Below, in pieces: positions 13,027 to 34,286 of a stretch of 64,000 nt of DNA. This stretch comes from Candidatus Uhrbacteria bacterium RIFCSPHIGHO2_02_FULL_46_47 (GTDB lineage Bacteria; Patescibacteriota; Patescibacteriia; GWA2-47-26): assembly GCA_001790815.1 (NCBI GenBank), contig MGDU01000010.1, forward strand, positions 2,621-66,620, read 5' to 3'. The notes beneath the pieces were generated by a model. It was not told the DNA's origin. It was given only the letters and a program-made list of their open reading frames with translations, and did not search any database. The first letter of the stretch is position 1; every line of letters begins with the position of its first letter. The translations under genes were made by a program, and so were the position numbers.

Positions 13027-13028
13027 TT

Positions 13029-13056: not shown

Positions 13057-13940
13057 AAATTATTGTTGTCCTAATGGTGCTCGCGCCTAATTTTGCGTAC
13101 GGAGCGGAGTTTTATTTTGGCACACAATCAAAAGAAATCGGCGTGGGGCAATTGGGAGAGGTCGGAGTGTTTTTAAATACTGATGATGCGCAGATTAACG
13201 CGATTGAAGGAAAAATTATATTTTCCGATAGTGTGACGGTGAAAGAAATTCGCGAAGGCGGTTCAATGATTAGTTTGTGGGTTGAGAATCCGTCACTGAG
13301 TGATGATGACCCTAATCACTCAGTGACGATCATGTTTAGCGGGATTATCCCCGGCGGCTACACCGGTAATCGCGGATATTTGTTCTCGATAATATTTGAA
13401 AAAACTAAAGTCGGCGATGTGAAAATTGAAGTGAATGATGCGCGCGCATTGCTTAATGACGGGCAGGGGACATCGACTGAAGTACGCGTATCGCCACTCA
13501 CGCTTGCGGTCGTAGAAAAAACTGGGGCGCCGGGATATTTGCCGCCTTATGATAATGAGCCGCCGGAATCATTTGTGCCGGAGATTGCGCAAGATCCGAA
13601 TTTATTTGATGGAAAATGGTTTGTTACATTTGCCACGCAGGATAAAATTTCTGGAATTGATCGTTATGAAATCGCATTTGGTTCACTTGGCAATTTCGTT
13701 CGTGTTGAAAGTCCGTTTGTCTTGCCACTCTGGAAACAGCTGGCTGGTGGAATTGTTAGGATTAAAGCCATTGATCGCGCTTCAAACGTTCGCATTGAAA
13801 CTTTACCAATCGCCATACCTTTGCCCTGGTATGAAGATTATCGGATTTGGGGTATAATCCTAGGAGGAGCTATTATTGTATACCTCATATTTCGTCTATG
13901 GAAGCAAAAACAAATAAAACACACAAAAAAACACGAATAG
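13038..13940 (+). CDS. membrane-anchored protein with cohesin-like domain
   Basis: Signal MKNVKLKIIVVLMVLAPNFAYG. Domain GVGQLGEVGVFLNTDDAQINAIEGKIIFSDSVTVKEI...VKIEVNDARALLNDG fits the cohesin beta-sandwich pattern; C-terminal TM (IWGIILGGAIIVYLIF). Contains the in-frame family D palindrome (PSLSDDDPNHSVT). Confidence 0.5.
   Translation: MKNVKLKIIVVLMVLAPNFAYGAEFYFGTQSKEIGVGQLGEVGVFLNTDDAQINAIEGKIIFSDSVTVKEIREGGSMISLWVENPSLSDDDPNHSVTIMFSGIIPGGYTGNRGYLFSIIFEKTKVGDVKIEVNDARALLNDGQGTSTEVRVSPLTLAVVEKTGAPGYLPPYDNEPPESFVPEIAQDPNLFDGKWFVTFATQDKISGIDRYEIAFGSLGNFVRVESPFVLPLWKQLAGGIVRIKAIDRASNVRIETLPIAIPLPWYEDYRIWGIILGGAIIVYLIFRLWKQKQIKHTKKHE
13290..13328. repeat. palindromic insertion element, family D, in-frame in the cohesin-like gene
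   Basis: ccgtcactgagtgat-gatgaccctaa-atcactcagtgacg. Confidence 0.75.
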
Positions 13941-15331
13941 CAACACGAAAGTACACGAAACTTTTAGTGTTTTTTAGTTTATTACTCGTGCCTTTTAGTG
14001 TAGTAAAAGCGGCGCCGGCAAGTTTGTTTTTATCTCCGGCTTCCGGAACATACGGATTGAACCGTACGTTTTCGGTTGATATTGTAGTGGCAACTCCGGG
14101 TGAATCCATGAACGCAGTCCAAGGTACAGCGCGGTTTGACGCGGATCGCTTGGAAGTAGTTTCCTTAAATAAGGACGGATCAATTTTAAGTCTTTGGATT
14201 CAGGAGCCCAGGTTTTCTAATCGTGAGGGGACTGTAACATTTGAAGGGATACGGTTAAATCCCGGTTATCAAGGTACGGCGGGGAAATTGCTTACGGTCG
14301 TATTTAAAACCAGAGCGCTGGGAACCGCGAAACTGAATTTTTCATCCGCGTCAGTTTTGGCAAATGACGGCAAGGCAACCAATATCATTACGGCGCTGGG
14401 AACCGCGGCGTATCAAATCGTAGTGCCGGAGCTTGCGCCGGAGGAAATTGACGCGACAGAAGGCGTTTTGCGCGAAACTAATATTATTTCTCCCACCCAT
14501 AGTAATCCGGAAAAATGGTACGCGCTTCGGGCGGTTCAATTTGAATGGACGTTGCCTTCTTCGATTGATGGCGCATCCTTTGTCGTCAATCAAGAGCCGG
14601 ATACTACTGTGCGAGAAAAATCGTTCGGACGATTATCAAGTTATACCTACGAGGTTGCCGAGGACGGCCTATGGTATTTTCACCTGCGCCTGCGCAATCC
14701 CAAGGGATGGGGACTGACCAGCCATTTCAAATTCCAGGTTGATACCGTTGCGCCCGAGCCATTTACTATCTCGTTTATTGATGGCAGAGAAACTGATCTG
14801 CCCCAGCCGCGGATTTTTTTCTTTGCCAATGATGCAGTTTCGGGAATTGAATATTATGAGGTAAAGGTAGATGAGGGCAGTTTTTTCAGAGTCGCCCCTG
14901 AGGAGCTTATGAGCGCGCCAGTATCTCTTCCCTCGCTTTCTCCCGGCATACATACAGCGTTTGTGTATGCCTATGATCGCGCTGGCAATGTTAGGAGTTC
15001 GGCTGAAGAATTTTCCGTTGTGGCGCCAAAAGCAACGCGTTCGGTTTTGCGCATTGGAAAAGTACAGGTGCCTTATTTTGCGGTTGTCGCAATCTTGATT
15101 GGATTTGCCCTTGCGCTTATTTTCATTTTGTTGCTAGCCTGGTGGCAATTCTTACGTTTTCGCAAAAAACTCAAAAAAGAAGCGCATGAGGTGGAAGAGG
15201 TTCTGCATAAATCTCTTGATCGGATACGCGAGGATGCCGGTAGAAGGTCTGGTAAGATTAAAAAAGACGCTGATGACGCGGAAAAGGCGGTGCGGAAAGA
15301 GATTGAGGATATTGAAAAGGAGGTGAAGTGA
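13898..15331 (+). CDS. membrane-anchored protein with cohesin-like domain (paralog of 13038 gene) and charged C-terminal tail
   Basis: Signal-anchor KLLVFFSLLLVPFSVVKA. Domain FSVDIVVATPGESMNAVQGTARFDADRLEVVSLNKDG..GKLLTVVFKTRALGTAKLNF; C-terminal TM (VVAILIGFALALIFILLLAWW) then a Lys/Glu-rich tail. Start uncertain (ORF track 13847; overlaps the upstream gene). Confidence 0.5.
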   Translation: MEAKTNKTHKKTRIATRKYTKLLVFFSLLLVPFSVVKAAPASLFLSPASGTYGLNRTFSVDIVVATPGESMNAVQGTARFDADRLEVVSLNKDGSILSLWIQEPRFSNREGTVTFEGIRLNPGYQGTAGKLLTVVFKTRALGTAKLNFSSASVLANDGKATNIITALGTAAYQIVVPELAPEEIDATEGVLRETNIISPTHSNPEKWYALRAVQFEWTLPSSIDGASFVVNQEPDTTVREKSFGRLSSYTYEVAEDGLWYFHLRLRNPKGWGLTSHFKFQVDTVAPEPFTISFIDGRETDLPQPRIFFFANDAVSGIEYYEVKVDEGSFFRVAPEELMSAPVSLPSLSPGIHTAFVYAYDRAGNVRSSAEEFSVVAPKATRSVLRIGKVQVPYFAVVAILIGFALALIFILLLAWWQFLRFRKKLKKEAHEVEEVLHKSLDRIREDAGRRSGKIKKDADDAEKAVRKEIEDIEKEVK

Positions 15332-18440: not shown

Positions 18441-18494
18441 ATTGAGTTTGTTATACTGGAAGATGTCAATATGCCCGCCTAAGTTTTTGCACAT

Positions 18495-18758
18495 ATGTTC
18501 TCGTACGTGTATATTTTAAGAAGCGAAAAAGATGGCAAGATGTATATAGGATGCACTGATAATCTACAAAAACGCCTACGAGAACATAACGCAGGTGGGT
18601 CATTTGCCACACAAACCAGGATACCGCTAACGCTTATTTACTATGAAGCTTATCCCCATAGAAAAGATGCTGAACAACGCGAGAAATTTTTCAAAACAGG
18701 ATGGGGTAGACAATATATGCAACGAGCTCTAAAACATTACTTTAGTGCAAAAATTTAG
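18495..18758 (+). CDS. GIY-YIG nuclease domain protein
   Basis: YVYILRSEKDGKMYIGCTDNLQKRLREHN matches the GIY-YIG core (GIY..YIG..R..H/N). Confidence 0.75.
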   Translation: MFSYVYILRSEKDGKMYIGCTDNLQKRLREHNAGGSFATQTRIPLTLIYYEAYPHRKDAEQREKFFKTGWGRQYMQRALKHYFSAKI

Positions 18759-18764
18759 GCGGGT

Positions 18765-19037
18765 ATGACGAATGTGGATGAATTAAAAAGCAAGCTTACG
18801 CAGGAGAATTTTACCGAAGTTTGGCTGCGCACTGAGCCGGCAGGGTATGCCTATGATGATCATACCCATCCGGTGGATACGGTATATATTGTAATAACCG
18901 GCGAACTGGTTACCAATACCGGCGGAAAAGAAGCAACGATCGGGCCGGGTCAGCGCTGGGATGTTCCGAAAAATATGCCGCATTCCTCGCACATTGGTCC
19001 TGAGGGATGCACCTATCTCACTGGCGTAAAAATGTGA
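18765..19037 (+). CDS. cupin domain protein
   Basis: 90 aa; His-rich cupin motifs (HTHPVDTVYIVITGE ... GPGQRWDVPKNMPH). Confidence 0.6.
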   Translation: MTNVDELKSKLTQENFTEVWLRTEPAGYAYDDHTHPVDTVYIVITGELVTNTGGKEATIGPGQRWDVPKNMPHSSHIGPEGCTYLTGVKM

Positions 19038-19672: not shown

Positions 19673-20644
19673 ATGTTGTCCAGAAAACAACTCTCCATTT
19701 CGATTATTTCCTCCTTACTGATTAGTGTGGGCGGGGCATTTGTGCTGGGAGGAGTGCAGGCGCAAGTAACCTGTACAACCGATGCGAATTGCGTGAGTCT
19801 TGGCCCGGAATTTCGCTGTGTGTCCAGTCGCTGTAATCTTCCGCCGCCGATTTGGAATGTGGATGGAACAGGACTGGCAAGTGGCGGTCAAAACGCGCAG
19901 ATTTTTTTAACCGGTAGCGCCGCCACGAATTCAGCGCGATTTGGAAATTTGCAAATTGGTTTTGGAAATCAAATTAACAATCTTGCAACAAGCGGTACTG
20001 CGCGCGAAGTTGCTGTACAATATCAAAGTGGCAATCAGGGGTTTACAGTGTATAATGGAGGTACAGAGCCACGTCTGCGTGTGGATAGCGCTGGCAATGT
20101 AAGCATTGCGCAAGGGCTGAATGTAGGAGGCGCGACTGGCGCAGGCGCAGGGGAAATTCTTGCATCAGGCAATATCCAAAGTACAGCCGGTATGATTCGC
20201 GGAAATTTTGTGGCTAGTGATGGGACAGTTTGCGCAAGCGGACAAATTCTTCAGCGCAGTGGCGCCGCCTGGGTGTGCGCAGCGCTTGCCGGGCCATGCA
20301 ATGGCGCGGTGTATGAGCAACCTTCGGCGCTTTCAAGGGACGGCAATCGCGGAGGATATTTGAGCGCCCGTATTGAATGTCCTCCTGCAATGCATATCTG
20401 CACAACATCGGAGATTCTTGAAAGCATACAATGCGGCGCGTTTTCTGGAAATGATACCAACGGAGGAGCGCCGATGTGGATTAACAATCTTGCGCCATCT
20501 CTTCCAACGCCGACCAATGACTGTGGAGGTTGGACAACAAATGCAAGCGCCTCTGTAGGAGTGGTGTATACTTATAATGCGGCCGGAGGAGTGGCCGGCA
20601 CTGCCGGATGCAATAGTGTACTTAAATTCGCCTGTTGTCAATGA
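19673..20644 (+). CDS. secreted Cys-rich fibre-like protein, paralog 1 (conserved C-terminal ..SEILESIQCG..NDCGGW..FACCQ domain)
   Basis: Signal peptide, then a Cys-rich N-terminus and Gly/Ala/Asn repeats. The C-terminal about 110 aa are shared with the 20667 and 22271 proteins (HxCTTSEILESIxCG, NDCxGW, ACCQ end). Start at the Met after the promoter (ORF track GTG 19640). Confidence 0.6.
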   Translation: MLSRKQLSISIISSLLISVGGAFVLGGVQAQVTCTTDANCVSLGPEFRCVSSRCNLPPPIWNVDGTGLASGGQNAQIFLTGSAATNSARFGNLQIGFGNQINNLATSGTAREVAVQYQSGNQGFTVYNGGTEPRLRVDSAGNVSIAQGLNVGGATGAGAGEILASGNIQSTAGMIRGNFVASDGTVCASGQILQRSGAAWVCAALAGPCNGAVYEQPSALSRDGNRGGYLSARIECPPAMHICTTSEILESIQCGAFSGNDTNGGAPMWINNLAPSLPTPTNDCGGWTTNASASVGVVYTYNAAGGVAGTAGCNSVLKFACCQ

Positions 20645-20650
20645 TATGAC

Positions 20651-20687
20651 AAATGTAAAATTCAAAATGCAAAATGTAAAATTATTG
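20651..20687 (+). promoter_or_regulatory. family G element (tandem TGTAAAAT boxes) at the start of paralog 2
   Basis: aaaTGTAAAATtcaaaatgcaaaaTGTAAAATtattg; gives the MQNVKLLLL start. Confidence 0.45.
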
Positions 20688-22268
20688 TTACTGTTTGGAG
20701 CATTTTTAATTTCAGCGTCTTCAGCGCAGGCTCAAGTCAGTTATTGCGCGCCGGGAACAACTGCCTGCTCGCAAGGATGTACACTTGGCGTTAATTGTAC
20801 CAGTTGCTGGAGCGCGCCGACATGTACGATTACTGGGCAAACCGCGCCCACTTGTGGATCATGTCAGTGTCCATCTGGCCAGATTGTTTGTGGAAGCGCG
20901 TGTCAGCTTCCGGCCGCAACTTCTGGCCAACCGTGCGATGCTGGGCAGGGGGCTGGATCAGGAACGTTTGATAGTTGTGGAGTATGTCAGGCAAATGCGC
21001 CGCGCTATGCTACCCGGCAATACTCATTTCCGGGCACTGCGGAAGACGGATATATTAATATCAAAGGAAATCTTCGCACTTCTTCTGATATGTATCTTAC
21101 TTCTGGCAAAGCAATTCGGGTTGACGGAAGCGGTGCAACACCTACTATATTGAATATCGGAAATTTTACCGGCACAGGCGGGGTAAATGTGACTATCCTT
21201 GGCACACTTGCCCTTGATGCGCTTACCGCTGATCGCGTAACTGGAGATGAGCTTTGCATTGGCGTGGATTGCCGCACCAGTTGGCCTGTGGCAGAGGGAG
21301 GGGGACTAACTGGAAGCGGCACTGCCAACCAAGTGGCATTTTTCACCAGCGCATCAAACCTTGATTCTGATGCTAATCTTTTTTGGGATAACATAAATAA
21401 GCGGCTTGGCATTGGCACTGCCACTACCCCAGGCAGTACGCTTACGGTTCGACGCTCTGCCGCCGGAGTCGCGTTTGCGGTGCGCAATACCGGTGATAAC
21501 GCTAACACATTCGCGATTACTGACACCGGATTACTTACTGTGGGCGTTGTGCCGTGGGCGCAGTTACGCGACATTCCTTCCGCATGCGCATCTGGCAAGT
21601 TTGTTATAGATATTGAAAGCGGTACTTGCGCTTTGCCAAGCTCCGCGGCTGAATCCGACCCAGTTTACCTGGCATGGTATAATAGCGCTAACCCCGGTAT
21701 CTCCAATTTAAAAGTTGTCGGTGGCGGAGCTTTTGGCGGGTATACGCCGGATGCAACATGGAAGATAACCACGCCAAACATTTACATTGGTGATCCGGCA
21801 GTAGGTGGTACAATCATCGGCGCAGGTTCTGGCCAAAGCGCCGGAGATATTACCACGGATGGAAATCTTGTAGTAAAAGGTTGTTTTGGGGCAATTTATC
21901 GCGGGGGAACATTGAGTACATATCAAGGAAATGTAAGTTATACAGATCCGGTATTGGGAACTTTGAACGGCTATAAAGCCGTGAATGAAATTTGCAAAGA
22001 TTCTGCGGGTATATTAAGTGGAAGCCATGTCTGCAGTGTGCAAGAAATTTTGGAAAGCATCAAATGCGGCGCAGCACTTCCGGGAACTGGCATTGTATGG
22101 GTGCAAGATGGCCCTCCTGGATTTACGGCGAACGTAAACGATTGTATTGGATGGACTTCCGCGGCTGGCGACTCTTATGGACGATACTGGGCGTTTGACG
22201 CAAATGGCGGCCAAGCATGGGTGCAACCTTGCAATGGTTTAGCCCGCGCGTTTGCTTGTTGCAAATAA
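20667..22268 (+). CDS. secreted Cys-rich fibre-like protein, paralog 2
   Basis: Signal MQNVKLLLLFGAFLISASSAQA and Cys-rich module (CAPGTTACSQGCTLGVNCTSCW..). Fibre-like repeats (IKGNLRTSSDMYLTSGKAIRVDGSG; IGTATTPGSTLTV) and conserved C-terminal domain ending FACCK. Confidence 0.65.
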   Translation: MQNVKLLLLFGAFLISASSAQAQVSYCAPGTTACSQGCTLGVNCTSCWSAPTCTITGQTAPTCGSCQCPSGQIVCGSACQLPAATSGQPCDAGQGAGSGTFDSCGVCQANAPRYATRQYSFPGTAEDGYINIKGNLRTSSDMYLTSGKAIRVDGSGATPTILNIGNFTGTGGVNVTILGTLALDALTADRVTGDELCIGVDCRTSWPVAEGGGLTGSGTANQVAFFTSASNLDSDANLFWDNINKRLGIGTATTPGSTLTVRRSAAGVAFAVRNTGDNANTFAITDTGLLTVGVVPWAQLRDIPSACASGKFVIDIESGTCALPSSAAESDPVYLAWYNSANPGISNLKVVGGGAFGGYTPDATWKITTPNIYIGDPAVGGTIIGAGSGQSAGDITTDGNLVVKGCFGAIYRGGTLSTYQGNVSYTDPVLGTLNGYKAVNEICKDSAGILSGSHVCSVQEILESIKCGAALPGTGIVWVQDGPPGFTANVNDCIGWTSAAGDSYGRYWAFDANGGQAWVQPCNGLARAFACCK

Positions 22269-22270
22269 AT

Positions 22271-23950
22271 ATGCGCAAAATTTCCATTTTTGTTATTTTA
22301 TTAAGCGGGTCAGCTATTTTTGCGCTTGCAAACCCGGCCAATGCTCAGCGCAATACCACTTGCGCAACAAGTGGAGGTGGCCGTAATTGCACAAATGAGC
22401 AACCCGCCGGCCAGACTTGGTATTATTGCGGAGGCACATGCCGTTTGCTTCCTGCTGATCCCGGAGCGCCATTTTCTCTGAATTGCGCCTCCTGCGTTTG
22501 GCAATGCCCGTCTGGAACTACGCTTTGCGGTTCTACAAATACCTGCGTAACCAATCTTGCGTGTCCATCGGGCACTACATTTGATGCGTGTTCTAATAGC
22601 TGCTCAACCCCCTACATTCTTAGAAATCAATTAACGCCGCAGGCAGATACTTATCTCAAAATTACCGGCAACTTGGAAAGCACAAGCGGGGATTTATATT
22701 TGGCAAACACAAAAGCCATACGGATTGACGCAACCGGCGCAAGTGTTTTGAATTTGGGGAATTATACCGCGGCAGGAACGGATTTTAATTTAACACTTCA
22801 CGGAAAACTGGAGACATCATTGACTTTACAAAATGTTGATCCAGTTTATGGCACAGATAAAGACCGCTGGCGACTGCGTTTGGATAATGCCGCGAATGAT
22901 TTTCAGATTATGCGCGTACGTTGGCCTAGTGAAGTTACGAGAATGGAAGATATGGTAGCGTGGTTTGATTACACAACCGGCGGTTTAGGATCCTCATACA
23001 GTATTACTACCAAATCCATTTTGCCACAAGGAGGTGGTGCCCAAATACTTTTGTTAGGCGACATTGATGATACAATACGCGTATCGAACAATTTGCGCGT
23101 GGATGGAAGCGCGGTACTTGGAGCTGCAACTCCAGCCGCTACTGCGCTATTGGACCTCACTTCTACGACAAAAGGTTTATTGCCGCCACGCATGACTACT
23201 GCGCAAAGAAACGGCGTAGTTTCGCCAGCCGCTGGCCTGACCATTTATAATACTAGTACCAATGAACTCAATGTGTACAAAGGTGCGTCCGGGTGGCAGG
23301 CCGTTGGTGCTGCCGCAGCGGAAACTGACCCGATTTATACAGCATGGTATACTGGAGGCAATCCGACTTTACAGAGTTTATCTATAAGTAATCTTACTGT
23401 CACAGGCACTACCACAACTCCAACACTTTGTTTAGGAGTAAACTGCCGTGGTAGCTGGCTTTCCGCAGGCAAATACTTGACAATTAATGCGGGAACAAAC
23501 ACGATTTCCGCAGTTGATTCAGCCGGTTGTTTTGGTCCAAAATTTACCGGACTTACCACAAGTGCGGGTGTAGGTGGAGTAGTACCAAGTACAGGAAGTT
23601 TTGCCAGTGGACGAACTAACGGAGATATTGCCTTTAATAGCGTTCAACAATACCGTGCCGCAAATTCAGCGTGCGCTGCCGCGCATCCGGGCAGTCATCT
23701 TTGCACAACTGCGGAAATTTTAAATTCTATCAACTGTGAAAGTTCAACAGTACTAAATAGCGCGCTTGAGGAATCCTGGATTTCCAATGGCGCACCCGCT
23801 CTTCCAGCGCAAACCAACGATTGTCAGGGTTGGAATTACGGCGTGTTATCCGCATCATTTAATGGCGTTGCATGGGCATTTGGAACTGATGGCGGAGCCG
23901 GGTGGGCAAGAGCTTGTTCAGAGATAAAACCATTAGCATGTTGTCAATAA
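22271..23950 (+). CDS. secreted Cys-rich fibre-like protein, paralog 3
   Basis: Signal MRKISIFVILLSGSAIFALANPANA, Cys-rich N-terminus, ITGNLESTSGDLYLANTKAIRIDATG repeat, C-terminal domain ending LACCQ. Confidence 0.65.
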   Translation: MRKISIFVILLSGSAIFALANPANAQRNTTCATSGGGRNCTNEQPAGQTWYYCGGTCRLLPADPGAPFSLNCASCVWQCPSGTTLCGSTNTCVTNLACPSGTTFDACSNSCSTPYILRNQLTPQADTYLKITGNLESTSGDLYLANTKAIRIDATGASVLNLGNYTAAGTDFNLTLHGKLETSLTLQNVDPVYGTDKDRWRLRLDNAANDFQIMRVRWPSEVTRMEDMVAWFDYTTGGLGSSYSITTKSILPQGGGAQILLLGDIDDTIRVSNNLRVDGSAVLGAATPAATALLDLTSTTKGLLPPRMTTAQRNGVVSPAAGLTIYNTSTNELNVYKGASGWQAVGAAAAETDPIYTAWYTGGNPTLQSLSISNLTVTGTTTTPTLCLGVNCRGSWLSAGKYLTINAGTNTISAVDSAGCFGPKFTGLTTSAGVGGVVPSTGSFASGRTNGDIAFNSVQQYRAANSACAAAHPGSHLCTTAEILNSINCESSTVLNSALEESWISNGAPALPAQTNDCQGWNYGVLSASFNGVAWAFGTDGGAGWARACSEIKPLACCQ

Positions 23951-23953
23951 TTT

Positions 23954-26182
23954 ATGCCAATACCAACATTGAAATATAGGTTTATTTTCACAGTGATTGC
24001 GCTTGCGTTTGGAATTTTTGTTTTACCATCCGCAGGGTTTGCTTATGGTGTTTGCGGTGCGAATACGCTTCTGTATTGTACTGGGCCATGTCAGTCTGTC
24101 TCTACATGGACTTCATCATATAATTGCGCTTCTGGCGCAACGAGCGTGTGCGGAACAGCAACTGATTGGCGGTCAAACTCAAATTGTGTTGCCAAAGAAT
24201 TTTCTTATAGCACAAGCAGTGGCGATGGTTCTTGCGCCTGTACTTGTCCAGCCGGATTTTCCACTAATTGCGGAACATATTGTTTAAATACTCCTGCCAC
24301 ATCATGTTACGGTTCAAATTGCACGGGTGGAATATGCAATTCCGGATACACCCGTAACTCGTGCGGACAATGCGTTCCCGCAACATACACTCCCACCTAT
24401 CTTGATTACTATCAAACCCCGCAATCTGGCAGTATAAACATCGGTGGAAGTGCAACGGTTGGCGGAAATATTTATACTAACGCGATCTACTCCGGCGCCG
24501 GCGGCGCAGCAAATATTTGGATGGGGGATAGTGATGATACTTTGCAAGTGAATGGAAATATCACTATTGGCAGTAGCAAAAGTCTTACTCTTGGAAGTGT
24601 GGCAAGAACATCTTGGCCAATCGGACTTCCAGCAGGTACTTCCGGTCAAACGCTTCGGCACGACGGCACAAACTGGGTTGCCAATAGCATACTGTATAAC
24701 AATGGAACTAATGTTGGCATTGGCACAACTACTCCCGGAACAAAATTGGATGTGGTAGGAACACTGAAAACGACCGGATTTCAATTGGGATCTTCCGCAT
24801 CCGTCGGACAAGTTCTCACAACCGATGCCTCTGGAGTCGGCACTTGGCAAACGTCGCCAGCCACGATAGGCGGAAGCGGAACTGTAAATACGCTTGCAAA
24901 ATTTACCGGAGGAACAGTGCTTGGTAATTCACAAATCGTTGATGATGGCGTAAATACTGGAATTGGCACCATGGCACCAGATACAAAATTACACATAACA
25001 GGTGGTAATAATGCGACATTAGCAAATGGATCAGGGTATGTAGTCATAGGAAATACTGCGGGAGGCAATGTTGTATTGGATAGTTGGGGAATGATGACGC
25101 GCAGTAATGGTGGAAAAGGGTTAATGTTTTTGCAAAATAATGGCGGTGATATTCTAGTTCACAATGCCCAAGGGGGAAGTTCAGTTTTTTCTATCAAGGA
25201 TTCCGGTAGGGTAGGAGTTGGAACAAGTTCTCCAGAAGAGAAACTTGAGGTATGGGAGGGCAGTGCCGGCCCTACTCGTCTGCGTATCAGGGATATGGAT
25301 GCAGGACAGAACCCAGAATTACAATTGTATTATGGGGGAACTAGTGGCAGTGATCATTGGGCGTTTTTCGTCGATAAAGCAAATAACAATTCATTGACAG
25401 TGTGGCAAGGGTCAGACATTTCTGGCACATCAATTATGGAACTTGATTCTTTGGGAAATTTAACAGTTATGGGAAATACTACAACAAACAATATCACTGC
25501 TGATAATCTTATAATAAATGCGGGTGGTGAAGTAATAGTGCCAGGTGGAATCCAAACATTGCCATCTTATACATTCACTGGCGATACCAACACCGGTATC
25601 TACAGCGGCAATGCGGATACTCTACGCTTTTCAACTGCCGGTGCGTCAAGATTAGAAATTAATTCAAGCGGTGATGTCACGATTAATAGCGGCAATGCAC
25701 TAAAATTTACCACTAACAACGTTGCTGCGCCTTCCGCAACAGATAGTTTAGTTGGAACAAGACTACTTCTTTATCCCAATGCTGCGCCTTCGCATTATGC
25801 AATCGGCGTTCAATCTAGTAATATGTGGTTTAATTCGTATAGTGGTTATAAATTTTATAGTAATGTTCAGCAAAAAGCTGAATTAACTAATGAGGGGACG
25901 CTTGATTTGGAGGGTGGTTTGATCGCCGGGACAGGAAATAAAATCATTGTCAATACCGCTGGCGGACTTAAAATGGAAGAACTTGCAAACGAAGATTGGG
26001 ATCAGAATGGTGATGGGAAGTTAATTATTGGGGTATTGGGTGGAGTTAGCTGTGCAAATGTCTGTGCTAGTCATGGCTTACCTTGTTGGGCCGCGTACAC
26101 CTTAGCAGGTGCTGTGAGAGGATTATCAGGAGATGGTTGTTCCTCAACGAGTGGCTATGCATATTGTTGGTGTGGGTCATAG
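23954..26182 (+). CDS. secreted Cys-rich fibre-like protein, paralog 4 (divergent C-terminus)
   Basis: Signal/TM FIFTVIALAFGIFVLPSAGFA and Cys-rich N-terminus. Tail-fibre-like GIGTTTPGTKLDVVGTLKTTG and PxxKLHITGG repeats; Cys-rich C-terminal end (CANVCASHGLPCW..YAYCWCGS). Confidence 0.65.
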   Translation: MPIPTLKYRFIFTVIALAFGIFVLPSAGFAYGVCGANTLLYCTGPCQSVSTWTSSYNCASGATSVCGTATDWRSNSNCVAKEFSYSTSSGDGSCACTCPAGFSTNCGTYCLNTPATSCYGSNCTGGICNSGYTRNSCGQCVPATYTPTYLDYYQTPQSGSINIGGSATVGGNIYTNAIYSGAGGAANIWMGDSDDTLQVNGNITIGSSKSLTLGSVARTSWPIGLPAGTSGQTLRHDGTNWVANSILYNNGTNVGIGTTTPGTKLDVVGTLKTTGFQLGSSASVGQVLTTDASGVGTWQTSPATIGGSGTVNTLAKFTGGTVLGNSQIVDDGVNTGIGTMAPDTKLHITGGNNATLANGSGYVVIGNTAGGNVVLDSWGMMTRSNGGKGLMFLQNNGGDILVHNAQGGSSVFSIKDSGRVGVGTSSPEEKLEVWEGSAGPTRLRIRDMDAGQNPELQLYYGGTSGSDHWAFFVDKANNNSLTVWQGSDISGTSIMELDSLGNLTVMGNTTTNNITADNLIINAGGEVIVPGGIQTLPSYTFTGDTNTGIYSGNADTLRFSTAGASRLEINSSGDVTINSGNALKFTTNNVAAPSATDSLVGTRLLLYPNAAPSHYAIGVQSSNMWFNSYSGYKFYSNVQQKAELTNEGTLDLEGGLIAGTGNKIIVNTAGGLKMEELANEDWDQNGDGKLIIGVLGGVSCANVCASHGLPCWAAYTLAGAVRGLSGDGCSSTSGYAYCWCGS

Positions 26183-26208
26183 TAGTGTTTGAAGGAATTC
26201 TAGGACAG

Positions 26209-26240
26209 CGCGAAGTCAAGCTTTGCGCTGTTTTTGTGAT
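26209..26240 (+). terminator. rho-independent terminator of the paralog-4 gene
   Basis: ACAGCGCgaagtcaagctttGCGCTGT followed by TTTTTG. Confidence 0.6.
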
Positions 26241-26334
26241 ACCGTCAAATTAGGAGGTTCTTAATGAAAAGAGCATTGACAATTTTGCTCGTGCTGGGCT
26301 GTGCGGACACCCGCTATCAGCCGAGCACCTCCCC

Positions 26335-26592
26335 AAACCCCTGCGGACGATTTGCGACGGCCGCACACAATCGTCCGCAACCGTCAACGCTCCTTCCGCT
26401 AATTTACCTTAGCCCGACTGAAATTCGCCCACGGCGAATTTGGGCGGGTCCGCCCTTTTTCCCAACCACTGCTCGTCTCCTCCCCGGAGCTCCGAGCAGC
26501 TTTCATTTTTTTCATCATACTATTGTGCCACCCACCTCGCGACCACCAATTTGCTATGCGGACAAAACGCGACGGTCGTCGCAAATCGTCCG
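26335..26592. repeat. highly structured noncoding segment bounded by 27-bp inverted repeats (GCGGACGATTTGCGACGGCCG)
   Basis: Inverted copies at 26335-26362 and 26565-26592. Internal hairpins (AATTCGCC-cac-GGCGAATT; GGGCGGgtCCGCCC + TTTTT; CTGCTCG..CGAGCAG) and an ATCGTCCGC motif repeated four times. Confidence 0.45.
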
Positions 26593-26766
26593 CACCAGCC
26601 AACGCCCATTGCGCATTTTGCACATTTTTTCATTGCTTTTTTGTTTTTGTGAATGTGCTATACTGATTTACTATGGTATCTCATCTCTATAACTCATATA
26701 TTAAGCGCAAGGAGAGATTTTCGGCTGGTTATCATAATTTGTACAATTCTCTTCCATTCAACACAT

Positions 26767-26798
26767 AACAAAAATCTCACGATCGTGAGATTTTTGTT
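26767..26798. promoter_or_regulatory. perfect 32-bp palindrome with TCACGATCGTGA core
   Basis: AACAAAAATCTCACGA|TCGTGAGATTTTTGTT. Confidence 0.55.
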
Positions 26799-26942
26799 AT
26801 AAACTGCCGCGAAGTCATTAGCGCACGCCAGCTGACTTTCGCAAATTATTCACTCCATAATATCATGCGCGAAAAGGAGGTTGTGGATAAGTCTATTTCA
26901 ATATGCATATCAAATGTGATACGATGGCCACACTTATCAATA

Positions 26943-26971
26943 ACAAAAAAGTCACGATCGTGAACTTTTTG
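26943..26971. promoter_or_regulatory. palindromic operator-like site (TCACGATCGTGA core) 10 nt upstream of the wHTH/Cas2-like gene
   Basis: acaaaaaagtcacgatcgtgaactttttg; a near-identical direct copy is downstream at 27607-27638. Confidence 0.55.
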
Positions 26972-26980
26972 CGATAGATT

Positions 26981-27628
26981 ATGGCGCAGCGTTTAAAGAA
27001 TTCAAAGCAAAAGTCCGCGAAATCGCAATCCAATGCCAGCCGCGCATCTAGGAGTCGTATGCTATCATCTGCCCGTGTGTATCTTCAGGATTTTGCGCAC
27101 GAGTTCTCGGTTTTTACCGGTGCGATATCAGGACGGCATCCTATGGGTTTTGCTGAGTACGAAGATAAGTTGGTCGCGCAAGAGGCGCGTGAGCGCAAAG
27201 CGCGACTTTACGAATTAAGGCGGCGCAAATGGATTGAAACAAAAAAGATAGGGGAGCGCTTGCTTGTGCGGCTTACAAAACAGGGCTGGCAACGCGCCCT
27301 TCGCGACCAAATTCGCTGTACTTCCGTAAAATGTAAAGACGGAATTTGCATTGTGGTTTTTGATGTGCCGGAATCCGAGCGACATGTTCGCGATGCCCTG
27401 CGCGAGATTTTGCAAAGTTGTAATTTTACAATGCTGCAAAAAAGCGTGTGGGTGAGCCGCAAAGATATTATCAAGCCGCTTTGCGCGCTTTTGCAGGGCG
27501 CGAAGCTTGAGCGCTGGGTTCGCATATTGGTTGGCAAAGAGCTTACAAGTTCATTTCTTAGGCGCACTATTACGCGCGCTCAAGCATCCACCGCATCCGC
27601 GATTGCAACAAAAAAGTCACGATCGTGA
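26981..27628 (+). CDS. winged-helix + Cas2-like domain protein (PaaX-like architecture?), paralog 1
   Basis: The C-terminal GICIVVFDVPESERHVRDALREILQSCNFTMLQKSVWV matches the Cas2 beta1-alpha1..QxSV core including the conserved Asp. The N-terminal half is Lys/Arg-rich with a wHTH-like wing (KKIGERLLVRLTKQGWQ). Confidence 0.6.
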   Translation: MAQRLKNSKQKSAKSQSNASRASRSRMLSSARVYLQDFAHEFSVFTGAISGRHPMGFAEYEDKLVAQEARERKARLYELRRRKWIETKKIGERLLVRLTKQGWQRALRDQIRCTSVKCKDGICIVVFDVPESERHVRDALREILQSCNFTMLQKSVWVSRKDIIKPLCALLQGAKLERWVRILVGKELTSSFLRRTITRAQASTASAIATKKSRS

Positions 27629-27725: not shown

Positions 27726-29381
27726 ATGTTCAAGCTTTATAATTCCTATACCAAGCGCAAGGAGGGGTTTCGGCCCGCCCATCAAGTGGGCGAGGCTCGC
27801 CTCCGGCGGCCGCTAAAGGATAAGCAGGTGGGGATGTATAATTGCGGGCCCACGGTCTATGACTATGTGCATATTGGAAATTTGCGCGCGTTTTTGTTTG
27901 CCGATATTTTGCGGCGGTATTTGGAATATCGTAGATACAAAGTGAAACAGGTGATGAATATTACTGATGTGGGGCATATGGTTGCCGATGGTGAAAATGG
28001 TGAGGATAAAATGTCCGTGGCAATGCGTCGAGAGGGTAAAGGGCCGGCGGAAGTCGCGCGTTTTTACGAAAAAGCATTTTTTCAAGACATCAATACGCTC
28101 GGTATCAAGCCAGCCTGGAAATATCCGCGTGCCACTGAGCATATTCCGGAGATGATCGCGCTAATTAAAAAATTACTCAAACGCGGGCATGCGTATTTGG
28201 TGGCGGAATCTGCACCACCCCTAACCCCTCCTCCACAAGGAGGGGAAACGAATCAATTTCCTCCCCTGCCCGAGGGGAGGTTAGGAGGGGTGGGAGCTTC
28301 TGTTTATTACGACTTATCTACTTTTCCAAACTACGGCAAACTTTCCGGAAACAAAGTAGATGATCTCATTCCCGGAGCACGAGTGGATGTTATTCATGAA
28401 AAACGCAATCCGTATGATTTCGCGCTGTGGATTTATAAACCGGAGCATGTTTTAAAATGGAGTGCGCCATGGGGCGCGGGATATCCGGGCTGGCATTTAG
28501 AGTGTTCTGCAATGTCCATGAAATATCTTGGGCAAACGCTTGATATCCACACAGGCGGCGAAGATAATAAGTTCCCGCATCATGAGTGCGAGATCGCGCA
28601 GTCAGAGGGCGCAACCGGCAAGCCATTTGCGCGCTATTGGTTGCATGTCAAACATTTACTGGTTGATGGCAAAAAAATGTCAAAATCGCTGGGAAATTTT
28701 TATACTCTGAAAGATTTACTGCAAAAAGGATATTCAGCGCGCGCGATTCGTTATGCGCTTATTTCAACGCACTATCGGGAAACTCTGAATTTTACTTTGG
28801 AAAGCGTGAAGGCGGCGGAGAATGCGTTGCAAAGGGTGGATGAGGTGGTGGATAGGTTGCATCCCCCCTCACCCCAACCCTCTCCCGCACGGGGAGAGGG
28901 AGTAAAGCGCATTCCCTCGCCCTTCATGGGAGAGGGGCAGGGTGAGGGTTTTGCGCGATTGGTCGCACGCACCCGCAAGGATTTTATTGCCGCCATGGAT
29001 GATGATTTAAATGTTTCAAAGGCGCTGGCAGTGATGTTTGAATTGGTGAAAAAAATCAATAAAGTAATGGATAGACCCTCACCGGTCCTTCGGACACCCT
29101 CTCCCGAAGGGGTCGAAGACGGGCCGAGCGAGCGCAGGCCCCGGGGAGGGGTGGGTGAGGGGTTGAAATTGCTGATGGAATTTGATGAGGTGCTGGGATT
29201 GGGGATTGGAAAAAGTGAAAAGCGCACTGTGCCAGAAGAAATTATGAAATTAGTGCAAGAGCGTGAAAAAGCGCGCAATAAAAAAGATTTTGGCCGTGCT
29301 GATGCGTTGCGTAAAGAAATTGCAGAACATGGCTATATTTTGGAAGACACAGCGCAAGGTCCGAGGGTGAAATTAAAATAG
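27726..29381 (+). CDS. cysS: cysteine--tRNA ligase (CysRS) with three in-frame palindromic insertions
   Basis: N-terminal [16 protein letters not shown] (class I HIGH), KMSKS present (KKMSKSLGN). At 551 aa vs about 460 typical, the excess comes from three family C elements encoding P/G/E-rich loops. Confidence 0.9.
28214..28295. repeat. family C palindromic element in-frame in cysS (1 of 3)
   Basis: caccaccctaacccctcctccacaaggagggg...cctcccctgcccgaggggaggttaggaggggtggga; encodes [28 protein letters not shown]. Confidence 0.8.
28863..28948. repeat. family C palindromic element in-frame in cysS (2 of 3)
   Basis: cccccctcaccccaaccctctcccgcacggggagaggg...gggagaggggcagggtgaggg; encodes [22 protein letters not shown]. 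Confidence 0.8.
29077..29162. repeat. family C palindromic element in-frame in cysS (3 of 3)
   Basis: ccctcaccggtccttcggacaccctctcccgaagggg...ccccggggaggggtgggtgagggg. Confidence 0.8.
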
Positions 29382-31739: not shown

Positions 31740-34286
31740 ATGCTACAGTTCGCAATCAATATCACTCCGCCGGAAATACCATCCGCCGGATTTATCACGG
31801 CAGGAATTATTGTGGGATTTTATGGTGGCATTATTGCGGCCGTATTTGCCGCGCGCGCGGCATTGCGCTTTTGGTATAAAAAAGCCATTGGGCTTAAAAA
31901 AACTATTCTTCTTGTAAGCGTGCCAAAGGAGGCCGCTGAGAAAAAATCAGAACTTGAAAAACAAAAAGCGCTCCAAGAGATTCAAGAGGATATCGCGGTC
32001 GGGGAAAAATTATTTGCCGCAATCGGCGGTCTGCGAGCGGAGCGTGGAATTATCGCTTGGTTTTTAGGGCGTTCTGATCTTTTTTCATTTGAGATTGTTG
32101 TGAAGGGCGGATTAATTTGGTTTTATGTCGCGACCCACCCCAAATATAAAGATTATGTTATACAGCAAATCCAAGCGTTGTATCACAATGCTCAAGTTGA
32201 AGAAGTTGAGGACTATAATATTTTTACTTCCAAAGGCGCGATTGCCGGCGGCTATCTCACGCTTAAGCGTCCAACACTTTTTCCACTCAAAACTTATCGC
32301 AAACTTGAAGCTGATCCGCTTGATGGCTTAGCAAACGCGCTTTCACGTATTGATAAAGCAGATGGCGCGGCTATTCAGTTTGTCGTACGCTCCGCGCGCA
32401 AAAAATGGCGCAAGTACGGCGCAAAAGTTGCTATTGAAATGCAAAAAGGAAAAAGCGCGCATGAGGCAATGGCATCTATTTCAATATTTAAAGGATTTAG
32501 CAAAGCGTTTAAGACCAGTAAAAAAGGCCCGGGTGGAGCGCCAGCTGAGGAGCAATCAAAAAGATTTTTGTCAGCCATGGAGCAGGAACAGCAAAAAGCA
32601 ATTCAGGAAAAAGCATCAAAAGCCGGGCTGGACATGAATATCCGGGTGATAACCGCGGCAAAAACCGGAACACAAGCGCATGAATATCTAAAAAATATAA
32701 TGAACGCGTTTGTGCAGTATGATTGGTTTGAGTATGGAAACAGTTTTGGGAAATCCTATCCGCGCTTAACTTCGTTTATTGCGCGCGATTTTATTTATCG
32801 CGGCTGGCGTCAAAAGCGCCGCGTAACACTGGGCGCGGAAGAGGCGGCCTCGGTTTGGCATTTGCCGCTGCCTACCACTGAGACGCCGAATATCCGCTGG
32901 CTTCTCGCGCGTAAAGCGCCTGCGCCGGTAAATGTCCCCAAAGAAGGAATTACACTTGGCTACAATCGCTACCGCGGCATTGATACAGTGATAAAACTCA
33001 AACGCGATGATCGCCGGCGGCATCTCTACATTATCGGTAAATCCGGAACAGGAAAATCTGTGTTTATTGAAAATCTGGCAATTCAGGATATTCGCGCTGG
33101 CGAAGGCGTATGTGTGGTGGATCCGCATGGTGATTTGATTGAGCATATTTTGGCCGCGGTGCCCAAAGAACGGATTGATGATGTGATTATTTTTGATCCT
33201 TCGGATTTGGAGCGGCCGGTGGGGCTTAATATGCTGGAGGCAAAAGACGAAGGCACTAAGGATTTTGCCGTGCAGGAAATGATCGCGATTTTTTACAAAC
33301 TATTTCCTCCAGAAATGATTGGTCCGATGTTTGAACATAATATGCGCAATGTGATGCTCACGCTCATGTCAGATCCCAATGAAAATGGCACCATTGCGGA
33401 AATCCCGCGCATGTTTTCCGACGCGGATTATCAAAAGTTCTGGGTGGCCAAGCTTAAAGATCCGGTAGTGCGCGCGTTTTGGGAAAAAGAAATGGCAAAA
33501 ACCAGCGATTTTCATAAATCAGAAATGCTTGGTTACTTAATTTCAAAAGTCGGTCGATTTGTGGAAAACGCGATGATGCGCAATATTATTGGCCAGCAAA
33601 ACTCCGGCTTTGATATTCGCGAAGTCATGGATAAAAAGAAAGTGCTTTTGGTAAATCTTGCCAAAGGAAAAACCGGAGAGGTGAACTCCAATTTGCTCGG
33701 GCTTATTATTGTATCAAAACTGCAGATGGCGGCTCTTGGCCGCGCGGATTTGCCAGAGGCGGAGCGGCACGATTTTTATCTTTATATTGATGAGTTTCAA
33801 AACTTTATTACTGATTCTATTGCCACGATTTTATCTGAGGCGCGCAAATACCGTTTGTGTCTTATTATCGCGCACCAATATATGGGACAACTGTCTGGCG
33901 GAAAAGAAGGCGGACAAGATACCAAGATTCGTGATGCCGTGCTTGGAAATGCCGGGACCATGTCGTCATTTCGCATCGGCGTTGAAGACGCGGAAGTTAT
34001 GGCAAAAGAATTCGCGCCGGTATTTAATGAGTATGACATGATCAACATTGAGCAATATACGGCATACATAAAATTGTTGGTGGACAATCAATCAACCAGG
34101 CCGTTTAATATGCACACTTATCCGCCCATAAAAGGCGATCCAAAAATTGCCGAAGCAATAAAACAACTTTCGCGCCTGAAATACGGCCGCGATCGCGCGA
34201 TTGTGGAAGCAGAGATTTTGGAACGCTCGCAGTTGGGCGAGCCGGAGCGAACTGCCGGACCTTTGGTAGGGGAGCGCGGATTATGA
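31740..34286 (+). CDS. membrane-anchored FtsK/HerA-superfamily P-loop ATPase (DUF87/TraG-VirD4-like)
   Basis: N-terminal TM (ITAGIIVGFYGGIIAAVFAA), Walker A YIIGKSGTGKSVF, HerA/DUF87-type VVDPHGDL motif, Walker B LYIDEFQNF; 848 aa. Confidence 0.55.
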   Translation: MLQFAINITPPEIPSAGFITAGIIVGFYGGIIAAVFAARAALRFWYKKAIGLKKTILLVSVPKEAAEKKSELEKQKALQEIQEDIAVGEKLFAAIGGLRAERGIIAWFLGRSDLFSFEIVVKGGLIWFYVATHPKYKDYVIQQIQALYHNAQVEEVEDYNIFTSKGAIAGGYLTLKRPTLFPLKTYRKLEADPLDGLANALSRIDKADGAAIQFVVRSARKKWRKYGAKVAIEMQKGKSAHEAMASISIFKGFSKAFKTSKKGPGGAPAEEQSKRFLSAMEQEQQKAIQEKASKAGLDMNIRVITAAKTGTQAHEYLKNIMNAFVQYDWFEYGNSFGKSYPRLTSFIARDFIYRGWRQKRRVTLGAEEAASVWHLPLPTTETPNIRWLLARKAPAPVNVPKEGITLGYNRYRGIDTVIKLKRDDRRRHLYIIGKSGTGKSVFIENLAIQDIRAGEGVCVVDPHGDLIEHILAAVPKERIDDVIIFDPSDLERPVGLNMLEAKDEGTKDFAVQEMIAIFYKLFPPEMIGPMFEHNMRNVMLTLMSDPNENGTIAEIPRMFSDADYQKFWVAKLKDPVVRAFWEKEMAKTSDFHKSEMLGYLISKVGRFVENAMMRNIIGQQNSGFDIREVMDKKKVLLVNLAKGKTGEVNSNLLGLIIVSKLQMAALGRADLPEAERHDFYLYIDEFQNFITDSIATILSEARKYRLCLIIAHQYMGQLSGGKEGGQDTKIRDAVLGNAGTMSSFRIGVEDAEVMAKEFAPVFNEYDMINIEQYTAYIKLLVDNQSTRPFNMHTYPPIKGDPKIAEAIKQLSRLKYGRDRAIVEAEILERSQLGEPERTAGPLVGERGL

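Follow-up and report, generated by a model that had tools for sequence, protein, structure and literature searches.

Tandem genes for exported fibre-like proteins in a Candidatus Uhrbacteria bacterium, three of them ending in a lectin-like domain, as plausible cell-attachment fibres

The gene block and its surroundings

The window analysed here is a stretch of 64 kb from the chromosome of Candidatus Uhrbacteria, an ultrasmall groundwater member of the CPR (Patescibacteria), which contains four consecutive open reading frames on the forward strand, named g1 to g4. The original prediction had placed four consecutive genes at 19673, 20667, 22271 and 23954, and both the open reading frame list and the NCBI record agree with it. 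The first gene, g1 (19673..20644), is a 323-aa gene in both sources and encodes a signal peptide, a mini-module with four cysteines (aa 34-54), a short stalk and a C-terminal lectin-like module. In g2 (20667..22268, 533 aa; the NCBI start at 20646 gives 540 aa), after the signal peptide come a Cys-rich module, a base motif, a stalk and the C-terminal module, an order that is repeated in g3 (22271..23950, 559 aa in both sources), whose stalk includes a PTL_trimer neck. The protein encoded by g4 (23954..26182, 742 aa), which is devoid of the C-terminal lectin-like module, is composed of a signal peptide, a Cys-rich module, a long tail-fibre-like stalk and a different tip with six cysteines.

The gaps between the genes measure 1-22, 2 and 3 nt, and a terminator-like hairpin with a U-run lies directly 3' of g4 on the same strand (26202..26234; RNA fold of -20.3 kcal/mol, z -4.2). 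This hairpin is the probable end of the transcription unit, and the four genes are probably co-transcribed. The block is flanked by a Mur ligase gene, tRNA-Glu, CysRS and further housekeeping genes, assigned by their Pfam domains; its GC content is unremarkable, and it is kept in several Uhrbacteria MAGs. Tandem arrays of genes with such modules are seen again in other genomes. The wider region also holds an IS200-type transposase and a GIY-YIG open reading frame. Duplication during assembly, which the original prediction had named as a result that would count against it, is ruled out for these genes, since the DNA matches between the copies cover only 54-58 nt at 65-72% identity. The synonymous sites of the paralogs are saturated, because protein identity is 32-38% and DNA similarity is confined to short motif blocks.

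The C-terminal module and its family

The modules of g1 (20282..20641, aa 204-323; family HMM envelope, E 6.5e-42), g2 (21873..22265, aa 403-533; envelope E 2.4e-44) and g3 (23573..23947, aa 435-559; the copy used for the structure model) resemble C-type-lectin-like domains (CTLDs), and all lie on the forward strand. Pairwise, they match in BLASTP with E values of 8e-15, 1e-13 and 2e-15 and are 32-38% identical over about 125 aligned residues, and the family HMM recognises them at E 1e-41 to 1e-44, far beyond chance. The ending ACCQ or ACCK that had been attributed to the tandem family is present in g1-g3 and does not extend to all four proteins, as the g4 tip (26021..26179, forward strand, aa ~690-742), which has six cysteines of its own, is unrelated, and a homologue search with it retrieved no relatives. 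Six cysteines are invariant in the module (HxC...NDCxGW...FACC), among them the helix-1 cysteine of Y..AN..C, the NDC cysteine, a penultimate one and the CC pair of the terminal ACC. The module also carries an invariant set of H, E, N and D residues, and its extreme C-terminus is invariant. It is the most conserved part of the g1-g3 paralogs, which differ in it only at three loop segments (HMM columns about 52-65, 85-92 and 96-108), the most variable one near the C-terminus. Within the population, cluster members from several MAGs and contigs show 100% identity in their modules; the few substitutions are located mostly in the Cys-rich part at the N-terminus, and the variants are few and very similar.

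A lectin-like fold, which had been no more than a guess, was borne out by structure prediction: a fold search with the predicted g3 module matched only C-type-lectin-like domains, and the predicted module has the alpha/beta fold of a CTLD. A BFVD fold search gave only weak matches. The CTLD fold runs beta-alpha-alpha-beta and onwards, its two helices packing against a pair of antiparallel sheets, and it is held by two conserved disulfides, one joining helix 1 to the last strand and the other linking strand 3 with the loop that comes after strand 4. The invariant cysteines of the module stand at the positions expected for these disulfides, but number six rather than four; the predicted pairs would join the helix-1 Cys to one Cys of the terminal CC, the NDC Cys to the penultimate one, and the Cys of HxC to the other terminal one. 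Canonical Ca-dependent C-type lectins (Lectin_C, PF00059) carry EPN/QPD and WND motifs and a long loop region. Neither motif occurs in the module consensus, in which the distance from "W-I..G" to "NDC" is only about 12 residues, and no match to Lectin_C or another Pfam family was found at E<=1 in g1-g3, nor any among 74 family members. The likeness to compact CTLDs, such as the Link modules of aggrecan, LYVE-1 and TSG-6 and the C-terminal domains of intimin and invasin, is one of fold only, with 9-25% identity; these domains differ in their Cys framework from the module, with its six invariant cysteines including the C-terminal CC, and neither g1-g3 nor the 74 family members match Pfam Xlink or Lectin_C.

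A match to a housekeeping domain, the other result that the original prediction had set against itself, was not found for the module in Pfam and NCBIfam scans, and searching the PDB sequences with the profile of the module returned only noise, with FadL at E>1. Membership in DUF1566/Lcl_C (PF07603; hhalign E 0.34) and in Fib_succ_major (PF09603; E 0.18) was considered and rejected; both values come from thin profiles of 3-4 sequences, and no Pfam match was obtained for either family. DUF1566 is known as the C-terminal domain of the collagen-like adhesin Lcl of Legionella pneumophila (PDB 8q4e; PMC11162425); it bears no sequence relationship to the module and is devoid of the six-Cys framework.

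An exhaustive search with the module profile, on which the size estimate is based, delimits a family of about 2,000 cluster representatives, whereas a word-index profile search had given 11 relatives; P0012, the top match of the exhaustive search, was discarded as a tandem-repeat artefact. Pfam, NCBIfam and PHROG hold no model of this family, and no description of it, or of CPR lectin or fibre adhesins of such a kind, was found in the searchable literature. Its members are mainly from CPR bacteria, with some from DPANN archaea and some from phages, in a phyletic survey that is biased towards the "GWINGGPPGFTANANDC" subtype because a tighter alignment replaced one that was too diverse. Matches also come from MAGs labelled Gammaproteobacteria, Vicinamibacterales and Elusimicrobia, some of which may be mis-binned contigs. 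Across the family the module always forms the protein end and the stalks before it are very different, and many members consist of a signal peptide and the module only (P0003, P0005, P0006, P0024 and P0034). The module had been proposed as something to seek in phages, and it is found there in real phage genomes adjoining baseplate and tail-fibre genes. In the viral contig L023, its gene, which encodes a secreted standalone module, directly follows genes for a baseplate wedge protein (phrog_6, 4e-50), a baseplate protein and a tail fibre; in a second viral contig, L025, it lies downstream of the head protease and major head protein genes. The module is a hitherto undescribed lectin-like tip domain, common in such episymbiotic microbes and present in some phages.

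Export signals, Cys-rich modules and stalks

Each of the four proteins opens with an n-region of basic character, after which come a hydrophobic core and a cleavage site of the AxA type (VQA-Q, AQA-Q, ANA-Q and GFA-Y in g1 to g4, read directly from the sequence), in agreement with the signal peptides originally predicted. Cys-rich modules follow, all on the forward strand, in g2 (20745..20987, aa 27-107, 14 Cys), g3 (22361..22603, aa 31-111, 12 Cys) and g4 (24053..24373, aa 34-140, 16 Cys). The predicted Cys-dense N-terminal module is accordingly present in these three, with 12-16 cysteines per 81-107 residues instead of about 20, while g1 has only its four-Cys mini-module. Two features recall TNFR-Cys or EGF-like cysteine-rich repeats, the UniRef name of g2 and g3, "TNFR-Cys domain-containing protein", and the model of the g3 module as stacked short beta-hairpins, predicted with moderate confidence; the model of the region after the signal peptide is poor, and a fold search with it gave noise only. 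The N-terminal 150-200 residues are common to g2 and g3 (E 3e-13) and are weakly shared with g4 (E 3e-5). An alignment of the base region shows a conserved motif on the forward strand, SSDMYLTSGKAIRVDGSGATPTILNIGNF in g2 (21081..21167) and SGDLYLANTKAIRIDATGASVLNLGNY in g3 (22685..22765), with the consensus GDLYLxSGKAIRIDGxGATxLNIGNY.

The stalks appear to be of the tail-fibre or adhesin-fibre type, an assignment that is supported by sequence matches in part of the set. In g4, aa 200-313 (24551..24892, forward strand), a segment that contains NVGIGTTTPGTKLDVVGT, is homologous to the Bdellovibrio fibre protein Bd2133 (phmmer against PDB 8ond, E 3.3e-5), and aa 495-620 (25436..25813, forward strand) match the tail-fibre families phrog_9942 (2.3e-9) and phrog_18345 (8.9e-9), which are the sole matches of g1-g4 in Pfam, NCBIfam and PHROG scans. 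A PTL_trimer neck (PF26696) is assigned to g3 alone among the four proteins by a precomputed Pfam hit (23147..23305, forward strand, aa 293-345; LLDLTSTTKGLLPPRMTTAQRN...YKGASGWQAV); the stretch was mapped through 103 other proteins that share only these residues with g3, at 31-68% identity and mostly about 45-65%. In other proteins, a PTL_trimer neck stands ahead of a distal tip, for example DUF1566 or S74; no description of PTL_trimer or PF26696 was found in the searchable literature. No match to Bd2133 comparable to that of g4 was found in g1-g3. The fibre motif IGTTTPGTKLDVVG, which had been ascribed to the whole set, occurs as such only in g4, in two copies, with one degenerate copy in g2 and none in g1 or g3. 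The proposed resemblance to a giant protein comes down to one stretch of 44 residues in g4 (25562-25684, forward strand, aa 537-580; 54% identity, BLASTP E 8e-9) inside the PHROG-matching segment. A common toolkit with the giant protein, as originally suggested, is not sustained by this one short fibre motif.

Candidate attachment fibres and alternative readings

The proteins are plausible cell-attachment fibres because the lectin-like tip domain is common in episymbiotic microbes and occurs in some phages. The preferred reading, with a probability of roughly 0.55, is that g1-g4 encode fibre proteins, exported through Sec and bonded by disulfides, which serve as adhesins at the surface and, in g1-g3, bind other cells through lectin-like tips; host recognition is suggested as their function by analogy. 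After Sec export, the signal peptide would be cleaved and the proteins would become fully disulfide-bonded. The Cys-rich module and the base motif would then form the cell-proximal end, retained at the surface, from which a beta-rich, probably trimeric stalk of very variable length would extend, built from tail-fibre-type repeats and including, in g3, the PTL_trimer neck. The distal tip of g1-g3 would be a compact, calcium-independent C-type-lectin-like domain, stapled by the six invariant cysteines, which may recognise a protein or glycan of another cell, with the host of the presumed episymbiont as the likeliest candidate, or of a particle. On this conserved scaffold, the invariant H/E/N/D residues may together make up a shared site, the three loop segments that differ between paralogs may tune specificity, and differences in stalk length may set the reach; in g4, a fibre of homologous type would bear another tip, a case of tip swapping.

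To our knowledge, all cultivated CPR bacteria are obligate episymbionts. How CPR bacteria identify and bind their hosts is described as largely unknown in recent papers (PMC12206443). It is conceivable, and rather doubtful, that the family as a whole is a cell-to-cell recognition apparatus with which CPR and DPANN episymbionts find and hold hosts, exchanged with the phages of these episymbionts or of their hosts, in which the H/E/N/D set would be a common glycan or metal site and the three variable loops together with stalk length would set the host range. If g1-g4 are attachment fibres, they are concrete, expressible candidates for host-recognition studies, and the family could serve as a marker for host range from genomes. 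The locus exemplifies how this family joins a lectin-like tip with phage-type and predator-type fibres in tandem arrays.

The mosaic adhesive trimer (MAT) fibres of Bdellovibrio bacteriovorus, among them Bd2740 with its C-type-lectin tip (PDB 8oks) and Bd2133 (PDB 8ond), offer a close comparison (Caulton et al., 2024; PMC10769870). Signal peptides, here seen as AxA motifs, are common to both systems, and both have an exchangeable C-terminal tip, CTLD-like in g1-g3 and of another kind in g4, with the module capping varied stalks. In MAT fibres, a conserved domain, rich in beta structure and about 130 residues long, for which cysteines are not mentioned, directly follows the signal peptide (PMC10769870), whereas in g2-g4 a disulfide-rich module takes this place, followed by the base motif. 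No sequence similarity to Bd2740 could be detected in the tip, Bd2740 being absent from the PDB sequence search matches, and the paralogs, apart from g4, keep the tip conserved instead of swapping it. The S74 chaperone is absent here. MAT stalks are intertwined trimeric beta-prisms or beta-helices with a recurring capping-loop motif, and the g4 stalk matches that of Bd2133 in sequence (E 3.3e-5; the predictor models monomers). The organisms also differ, one being a predator and the other a CPR bacterium with predicted fibres.

In receptor-binding proteins, the anchor is usually conserved and the tip variable. The variable stalk and conserved tip that the original prediction took for this architecture reverse that logic, and the base of g2 and g3 is conserved too. 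The fibres might also be oriented the other way round, with the module anchoring them to the cell-wall glycan of their own cell, like SLH, CWB2 or LysM, and the stalk and Cys-rich module exposed. In favour of this, the module is the most conserved part of the paralogs, invariant in the population and always terminal in otherwise highly variable proteins; the H/E/N/D set suggests one common ligand, and the population substitutions lie mostly in the N-terminal Cys-rich part. This inversion is nevertheless judged unlikely. MAT fibres (PMC10769870), phage tail fibres and Lcl (PMC11162425) all run from a cell-proximal N-terminus to a distal C-terminal tip, and PTL_trimer necks precede distal tips; the N-terminal base of g2 and g3 is conserved, as a docking end should be, g4 has the same N-terminus without the module, and standalone secreted modules, one of them phage-encoded, make little sense as anchors. 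These standalone members, including the secreted L023 copy, would be in keeping with soluble lectins or competitive factors, for instance agglutinins, bacteriocins of a lectin-like type, or decoys and blockers that shield receptors from phages, and domain scans of g1-g4 revealed no recognisable anchoring signal. For g1-g4 this is improbable, as long fibre-type stalks and a conserved base would be needless in a soluble lectin, and the scans detected no toxin or enzymatic domain.

If the genes derived from a prophage or tailocin, or from the remains of a phage, the proteins would be tail fibres or receptor-binding proteins. The tail-fibre PHROG matches of g4, the presence of the module in viral contigs L023 and L025, and the transposase and GIY-YIG frame of the wider region are compatible with it, but genes for a capsid, terminase, portal, baseplate, sheath or tube are all missing from the vicinity. 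A prophage at the locus was rejected, as the neighbours gave no structural PHROG matches and the flanks are housekeeping genes. The GC content is unremarkable, the four-gene block is kept in several Uhrbacteria MAGs, and the genes, which the original prediction had likened to receptor-binding proteins, are chromosomal in a CPR bacterium and carry Sec signal peptides, usually absent from virion fibres. A phage origin is thus highly unlikely.

Diversity-generating retroelements (DGRs) have, near a reverse transcriptase, a template repeat that shares about 80-95% identity with the variable region and differs from it by adenine-specific mismatches. As in the Mtd protein of Bordetella phage BPP-1 and in DGR proteins such as TvpA and the CPR/DPANN targets, a Ca-independent C-type-lectin-fold tip stands at the C-terminus of the fibre, and the most variable segment of the module sits nearer the C-terminal side of the fold, so that the tips could be taken for hypervariable DGR targets. 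The variable regions of DGRs are consistently located within C-type-lectin folds at the C-terminus, and one clade of DGRs occurs in Patescibacteria only (PMC8144416). The chance of this at g1-g4 is slight in the extreme: no template-repeat-like copy of the module DNA occurs in the 64 kb, where only the paralogs match (65-72% identity), or within 6 kb in 22 related loci, and no reverse transcriptase was found, as none of the window's open reading frames with 150 aa or more has a YxDD motif. The DGR reading is largely refuted for this locus, where, in contrast to the Mtd and DGR proteins, the genes are chromosomal with signal peptides and free of hypervariation, the modules are identical across MAGs and contigs, and the extreme C-terminus is invariant.

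Organization of the fibre gene cluster

The region 19673-26182 contains, as the original prediction held, four consecutive + strand ORFs for fibre proteins, g1 (19673-20644, 323 aa), g2 (20667-22268, 533 aa; 540 aa from a start at 20646 in the NCBI call), g3 (22271-23950, 559 aa), and g4 (23954-26182, 742 aa). They look like a single transcription unit, because the successive gaps measure 1-22, 2, and 3 nt and a strong hairpin followed by a U-run (26202-26234; -20.3 kcal/mol, z -4.2) lies directly 3' of g4. By exact protein look-ups, the genes are present in several near-identical Candidatus Uhrbacteria MAGs from aquifer, RIFCSP assemblies (for example GCA_001791555.1, contig MGEW01000011.1), which annotate them as hypothetical proteins; UniRef labels g2 and g3 "TNFR-Cys domain-containing protein". 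The window is ordinary chromosome, with Mur ligase, tRNA-Glu, CysRS, DNA pol III tau, MurJ, LepA, RecJ, LigA, CorA, and PilB-type ATPase genes, and the GC content of the region is unremarkable. An IS200-type (Y1) transposase (158-904), a TrwB-like type IV coupling protein (31740-34286), and the PilB-type T2SS/T4P ATPase (53616-55364) are also encoded, none of them adjoining the fibre genes.

The predicted signal peptides are found in all four proteins, where a basic n-region is followed by a hydrophobic core and then by an AxA-type site (VQA-Q, AQA-Q, ANA-Q, and GFA-Y in g1 to g4). Their Cys totals are even (14, 26, 22, and 22), as expected of exported, disulfide-bonded proteins. The Cys-dense N-terminal module is present in g2, g3, and g4 (14, 12, and 16 Cys, spanning 81-107 aa), although the proposed figure of about 20 is too high and g1 has only a 4-Cys mini-version. 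The first 150-200 aa are common to g2 and g3 (E 3e-13), and the similarity of g4 to them is weak (3e-5).

Homologies to known fibres are located in the stalks. In g4, residues 200-313, which include "NVGIGTTTPGTKLDVVGT", give a match to Bd2133, a Bdellovibrio MAT fibre of solved structure (8ond; E 3.3e-5), and residues 495-620 match phage tail-fibre PHROGs. The protein g3 carries the Pfam family PF26696, "PTL_trimer", placed at residues 293-345 (LLDLTSTTKGLLPPRMTTAQRN...), the sole part of g3 to which 103 other proteins align. In these, the element is accompanied by DUF1566, Fib_succ_major, Peptidase_S74, a tailspike-type pectate-lyase fold, or Mtd_N, all of them partners typical of fibres and tailspikes. 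A trimer is implied by the name of the family; the window proteins are putative trimers. The supposed resemblance to the giant protein (1026-10649) holds for g4, through a single 44-aa tail-fibre-type BLASTP stretch (residues 1818-1861 of the giant protein), but for no other of the four. The giant protein itself (3,207 aa) has a signal peptide, a T/A/G-rich composition, only 6 Cys, and an acidic, Pro/Glu-rich C-terminal tail, and matches no Pfam or NCBIfam model.

The C-terminal module and its family

As predicted, g1, g2, and g3 have in common a C-terminal module (about 120 aa, with ACCQ or ACCK as its last residues; BLASTP E 1e-13 to 1e-15, 32-38% identity; family HMM E about 1e-41 to 1e-44); g4 lacks it and ends in a different, 6-Cys tip. 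At the DNA level, matches between the paralogs span only 54-58 nt at 65-72% identity, so that the modules are old paralogs and not assembly duplicates. No match is detected among Pfam, NCBIfam, and PHROG models or PDB sequences. The AlphaFold2 model of the g3 module (14-sequence alignment; pLDDT 77, pTM 0.73), with the element order beta-alpha-alpha-beta..., structurally matches CD72, LYVE-1, mannose receptor CRDs, invasin, and intimin, which bears out the earlier guess of a lectin-like fold. A viral structure library yields weak matches only, again to C-type lectins and to phage DUF1566 proteins.

The family consensus (Y..AN..C / GSHVCT..EIL / W-I..GPPG...NDC.GW / C....FACC(K/Q)) has six invariant Cys and invariant polar residues H, E, N, and D. 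Neither the EPN/QPD nor the WND calcium motif occurs in it, and the stretch between the "WI" strand and "NDC" is only about 12 residues long, which makes the module a compact, calcium-independent, Link-module-like C-type-lectin-like domain (CTLD). Variability and indels cluster in three segments (HMM columns about 52-65, 85-92, and 96-108). Profile-profile comparison detects no relationship to DUF1566 (E 0.34) or Fib_succ_major (E 0.18), so that the module is a sequence family of its own inside the CTLD fold class. This new family of tips, marked by six framework Cys and a CC at the end, is widespread but not described in the libraries and literature searched.

A word-index search with the module finds only 11 relatives, and an exhaustive profile search finds 2,006 representatives at E<=1e-3 (987 at E<=1e-10). 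The module stands almost always at the very C-terminus, in proteins of 116 to >2,000 aa, and in a local sample ends at most 4 residues from the C-terminus in 76 cases. In a sample of 74 members, a hydrophobic segment is present at the N-terminus of 58, and 34 have at least 8 Cys within the next 150 aa; apart from YadA-head, collagen, and chlorovirus glycoprotein repeats here and there, Pfam finds almost nothing in them. When GTDB species genomes are scanned with the motif as seed, 20 loci emerge; most bear the labels Patescibacteria, Parcubacteria, Falkowbacteria, or Peribacteraceae, while two belong to DPANN archaea and a few to MAGs with other labels. Tandem arrays are a habit of the family, since about half of the loci contain two or three adjoining same-strand genes, each ending in the module. 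One such locus (L017, 50-6330 of Patescibacteria MAG DATFJU010000024.1) has three, whose modules are 67-78% identical at the DNA level, much closer than the window paralogs, and is suited to dN/dS or gene-conversion analysis of the family.

The module is also found on three IMG/VR contigs. L024 encodes two fibre proteins (about 1,400-1,500 aa) that match tail-fibre PHROGs strongly, and the first of them ends in the module; in L025 the genes for the head protease and the major head protein lie upstream of the one for the module protein. In L023 (IMGVR_UViG_3300027819_000065), a contractile-tail phage contig, baseplate wedge (phrog_120; phrog_6 at E 4e-50), baseplate, and tail-fibre genes are followed at 5285-6294 by two small signal-peptide proteins, the second of which, 151 aa long, consists of a signal peptide and the module alone. 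A lectin that is secreted and not part of the virion is unusual among tail-fibre genes, and could serve as a fibre-tip adhesin or receptor blocker or be a moron.

Proposed exported adhesins and alternative explanations

By analogy with the MAT fibres of Bdellovibrio, surface-displayed trimers that recognize prey and carry interchangeable adhesive tips, including one with a Ca-free lectin fold (PMC10769870), g1-g4 most likely represent a small repertoire of exported fibre adhesins, which would be retained at the cell surface. A second analogue is Lcl, which joins a collagen stalk to a C-terminal glycan-binding domain (PMC11162425). The Cys-rich N-terminus and the base motif conserved in g2 and g3 would form the proximal end, followed by a probably trimeric beta-stalk of gene-specific length and, distally, the compact lectin-like domain, a conserved scaffold displaying three paralog-specific loops; g4 would provide an alternative tip. 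The likely ligand is a glycan or protein on another cell's surface, which is reasonable for a CPR bacterium because cultivated members are all episymbionts whose host-recognition molecules are described as largely unknown (PMC12206443). Lectin-tipped adhesive fibres in paralog sets are an already known kind of system; it is unusual, though, for a Cys-rich base and a conserved tip to occur together. The original prediction is largely right, with corrections: its receptor-binding reading is partly supported, but the setting is cellular and not phage.

Against an origin from a prophage or tailocin, no phage structural genes are found among the neighbours of g1-g4, and all four proteins have Sec signal peptides.

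CTLD tips are a classic scaffold of diversity-generating retroelements (DGRs), which could have diversified the g1-g3 modules. One DGR clade is even specific to CPR (PMC8144416). The tests are nevertheless negative: the module DNA has no template-repeat-like copy in the window or related loci, the YxDD motif occurs in no ORF, and the modules are identical across all population variants, whose few differences are located elsewhere. A reversed orientation, in which the module would anchor the fibre to the wall, is disfavoured because homologous fibres run the other way and because some modules are secreted on their own. It is possible that short family members are soluble lectins, but this leaves the long stalks of the window proteins unexplained.

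Further features of the window

In the 800-nt spacer after g4, the part at 26264-26700 includes an inverted repeat of 22 nt (26342-26363 / 26573-26594, 95% complementary) as well as a direct repeat of 58 nt; no Rfam family is matched. The ORF within it (26264-26692) is unusual in composition, rich in Pro and Arg, and probably non-coding. A perfect 36-nt palindrome (ATAACAAAAATCTCACGATCGTGAGATTTTTGTTAT) at 26765-26800 and an imperfect repeat of it 170 nt downstream (26936-26971) lie just before a PaaX_M/Cas2-like gene (26981-27628) and look like operator sites of this regulator. The CysRS-like ORF (27726-29381, identified by eye) has low-complexity, Pro/Gly/Glu-rich inserts that look like inserted repeat-derived sequence.

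The whole of 1-26 kb is rich in secreted or unknown surface proteins. The protein at 11659-13026 has fn3, Big_6-like, and dockerin-like matches, and the ORFs that follow it (13014-13940 and 13847-15331) are adjoining paralogs (BLASTP E 6e-15) without a match in Pfam or PHROG. A small GIY-YIG (homing-endonuclease-like) ORF at 18495-18758 is flanked by 22-nt inverted repeats (18471-18492 / 18745-18766, 91% complementary), and together they (18471-18766) may be a mini mobile element.
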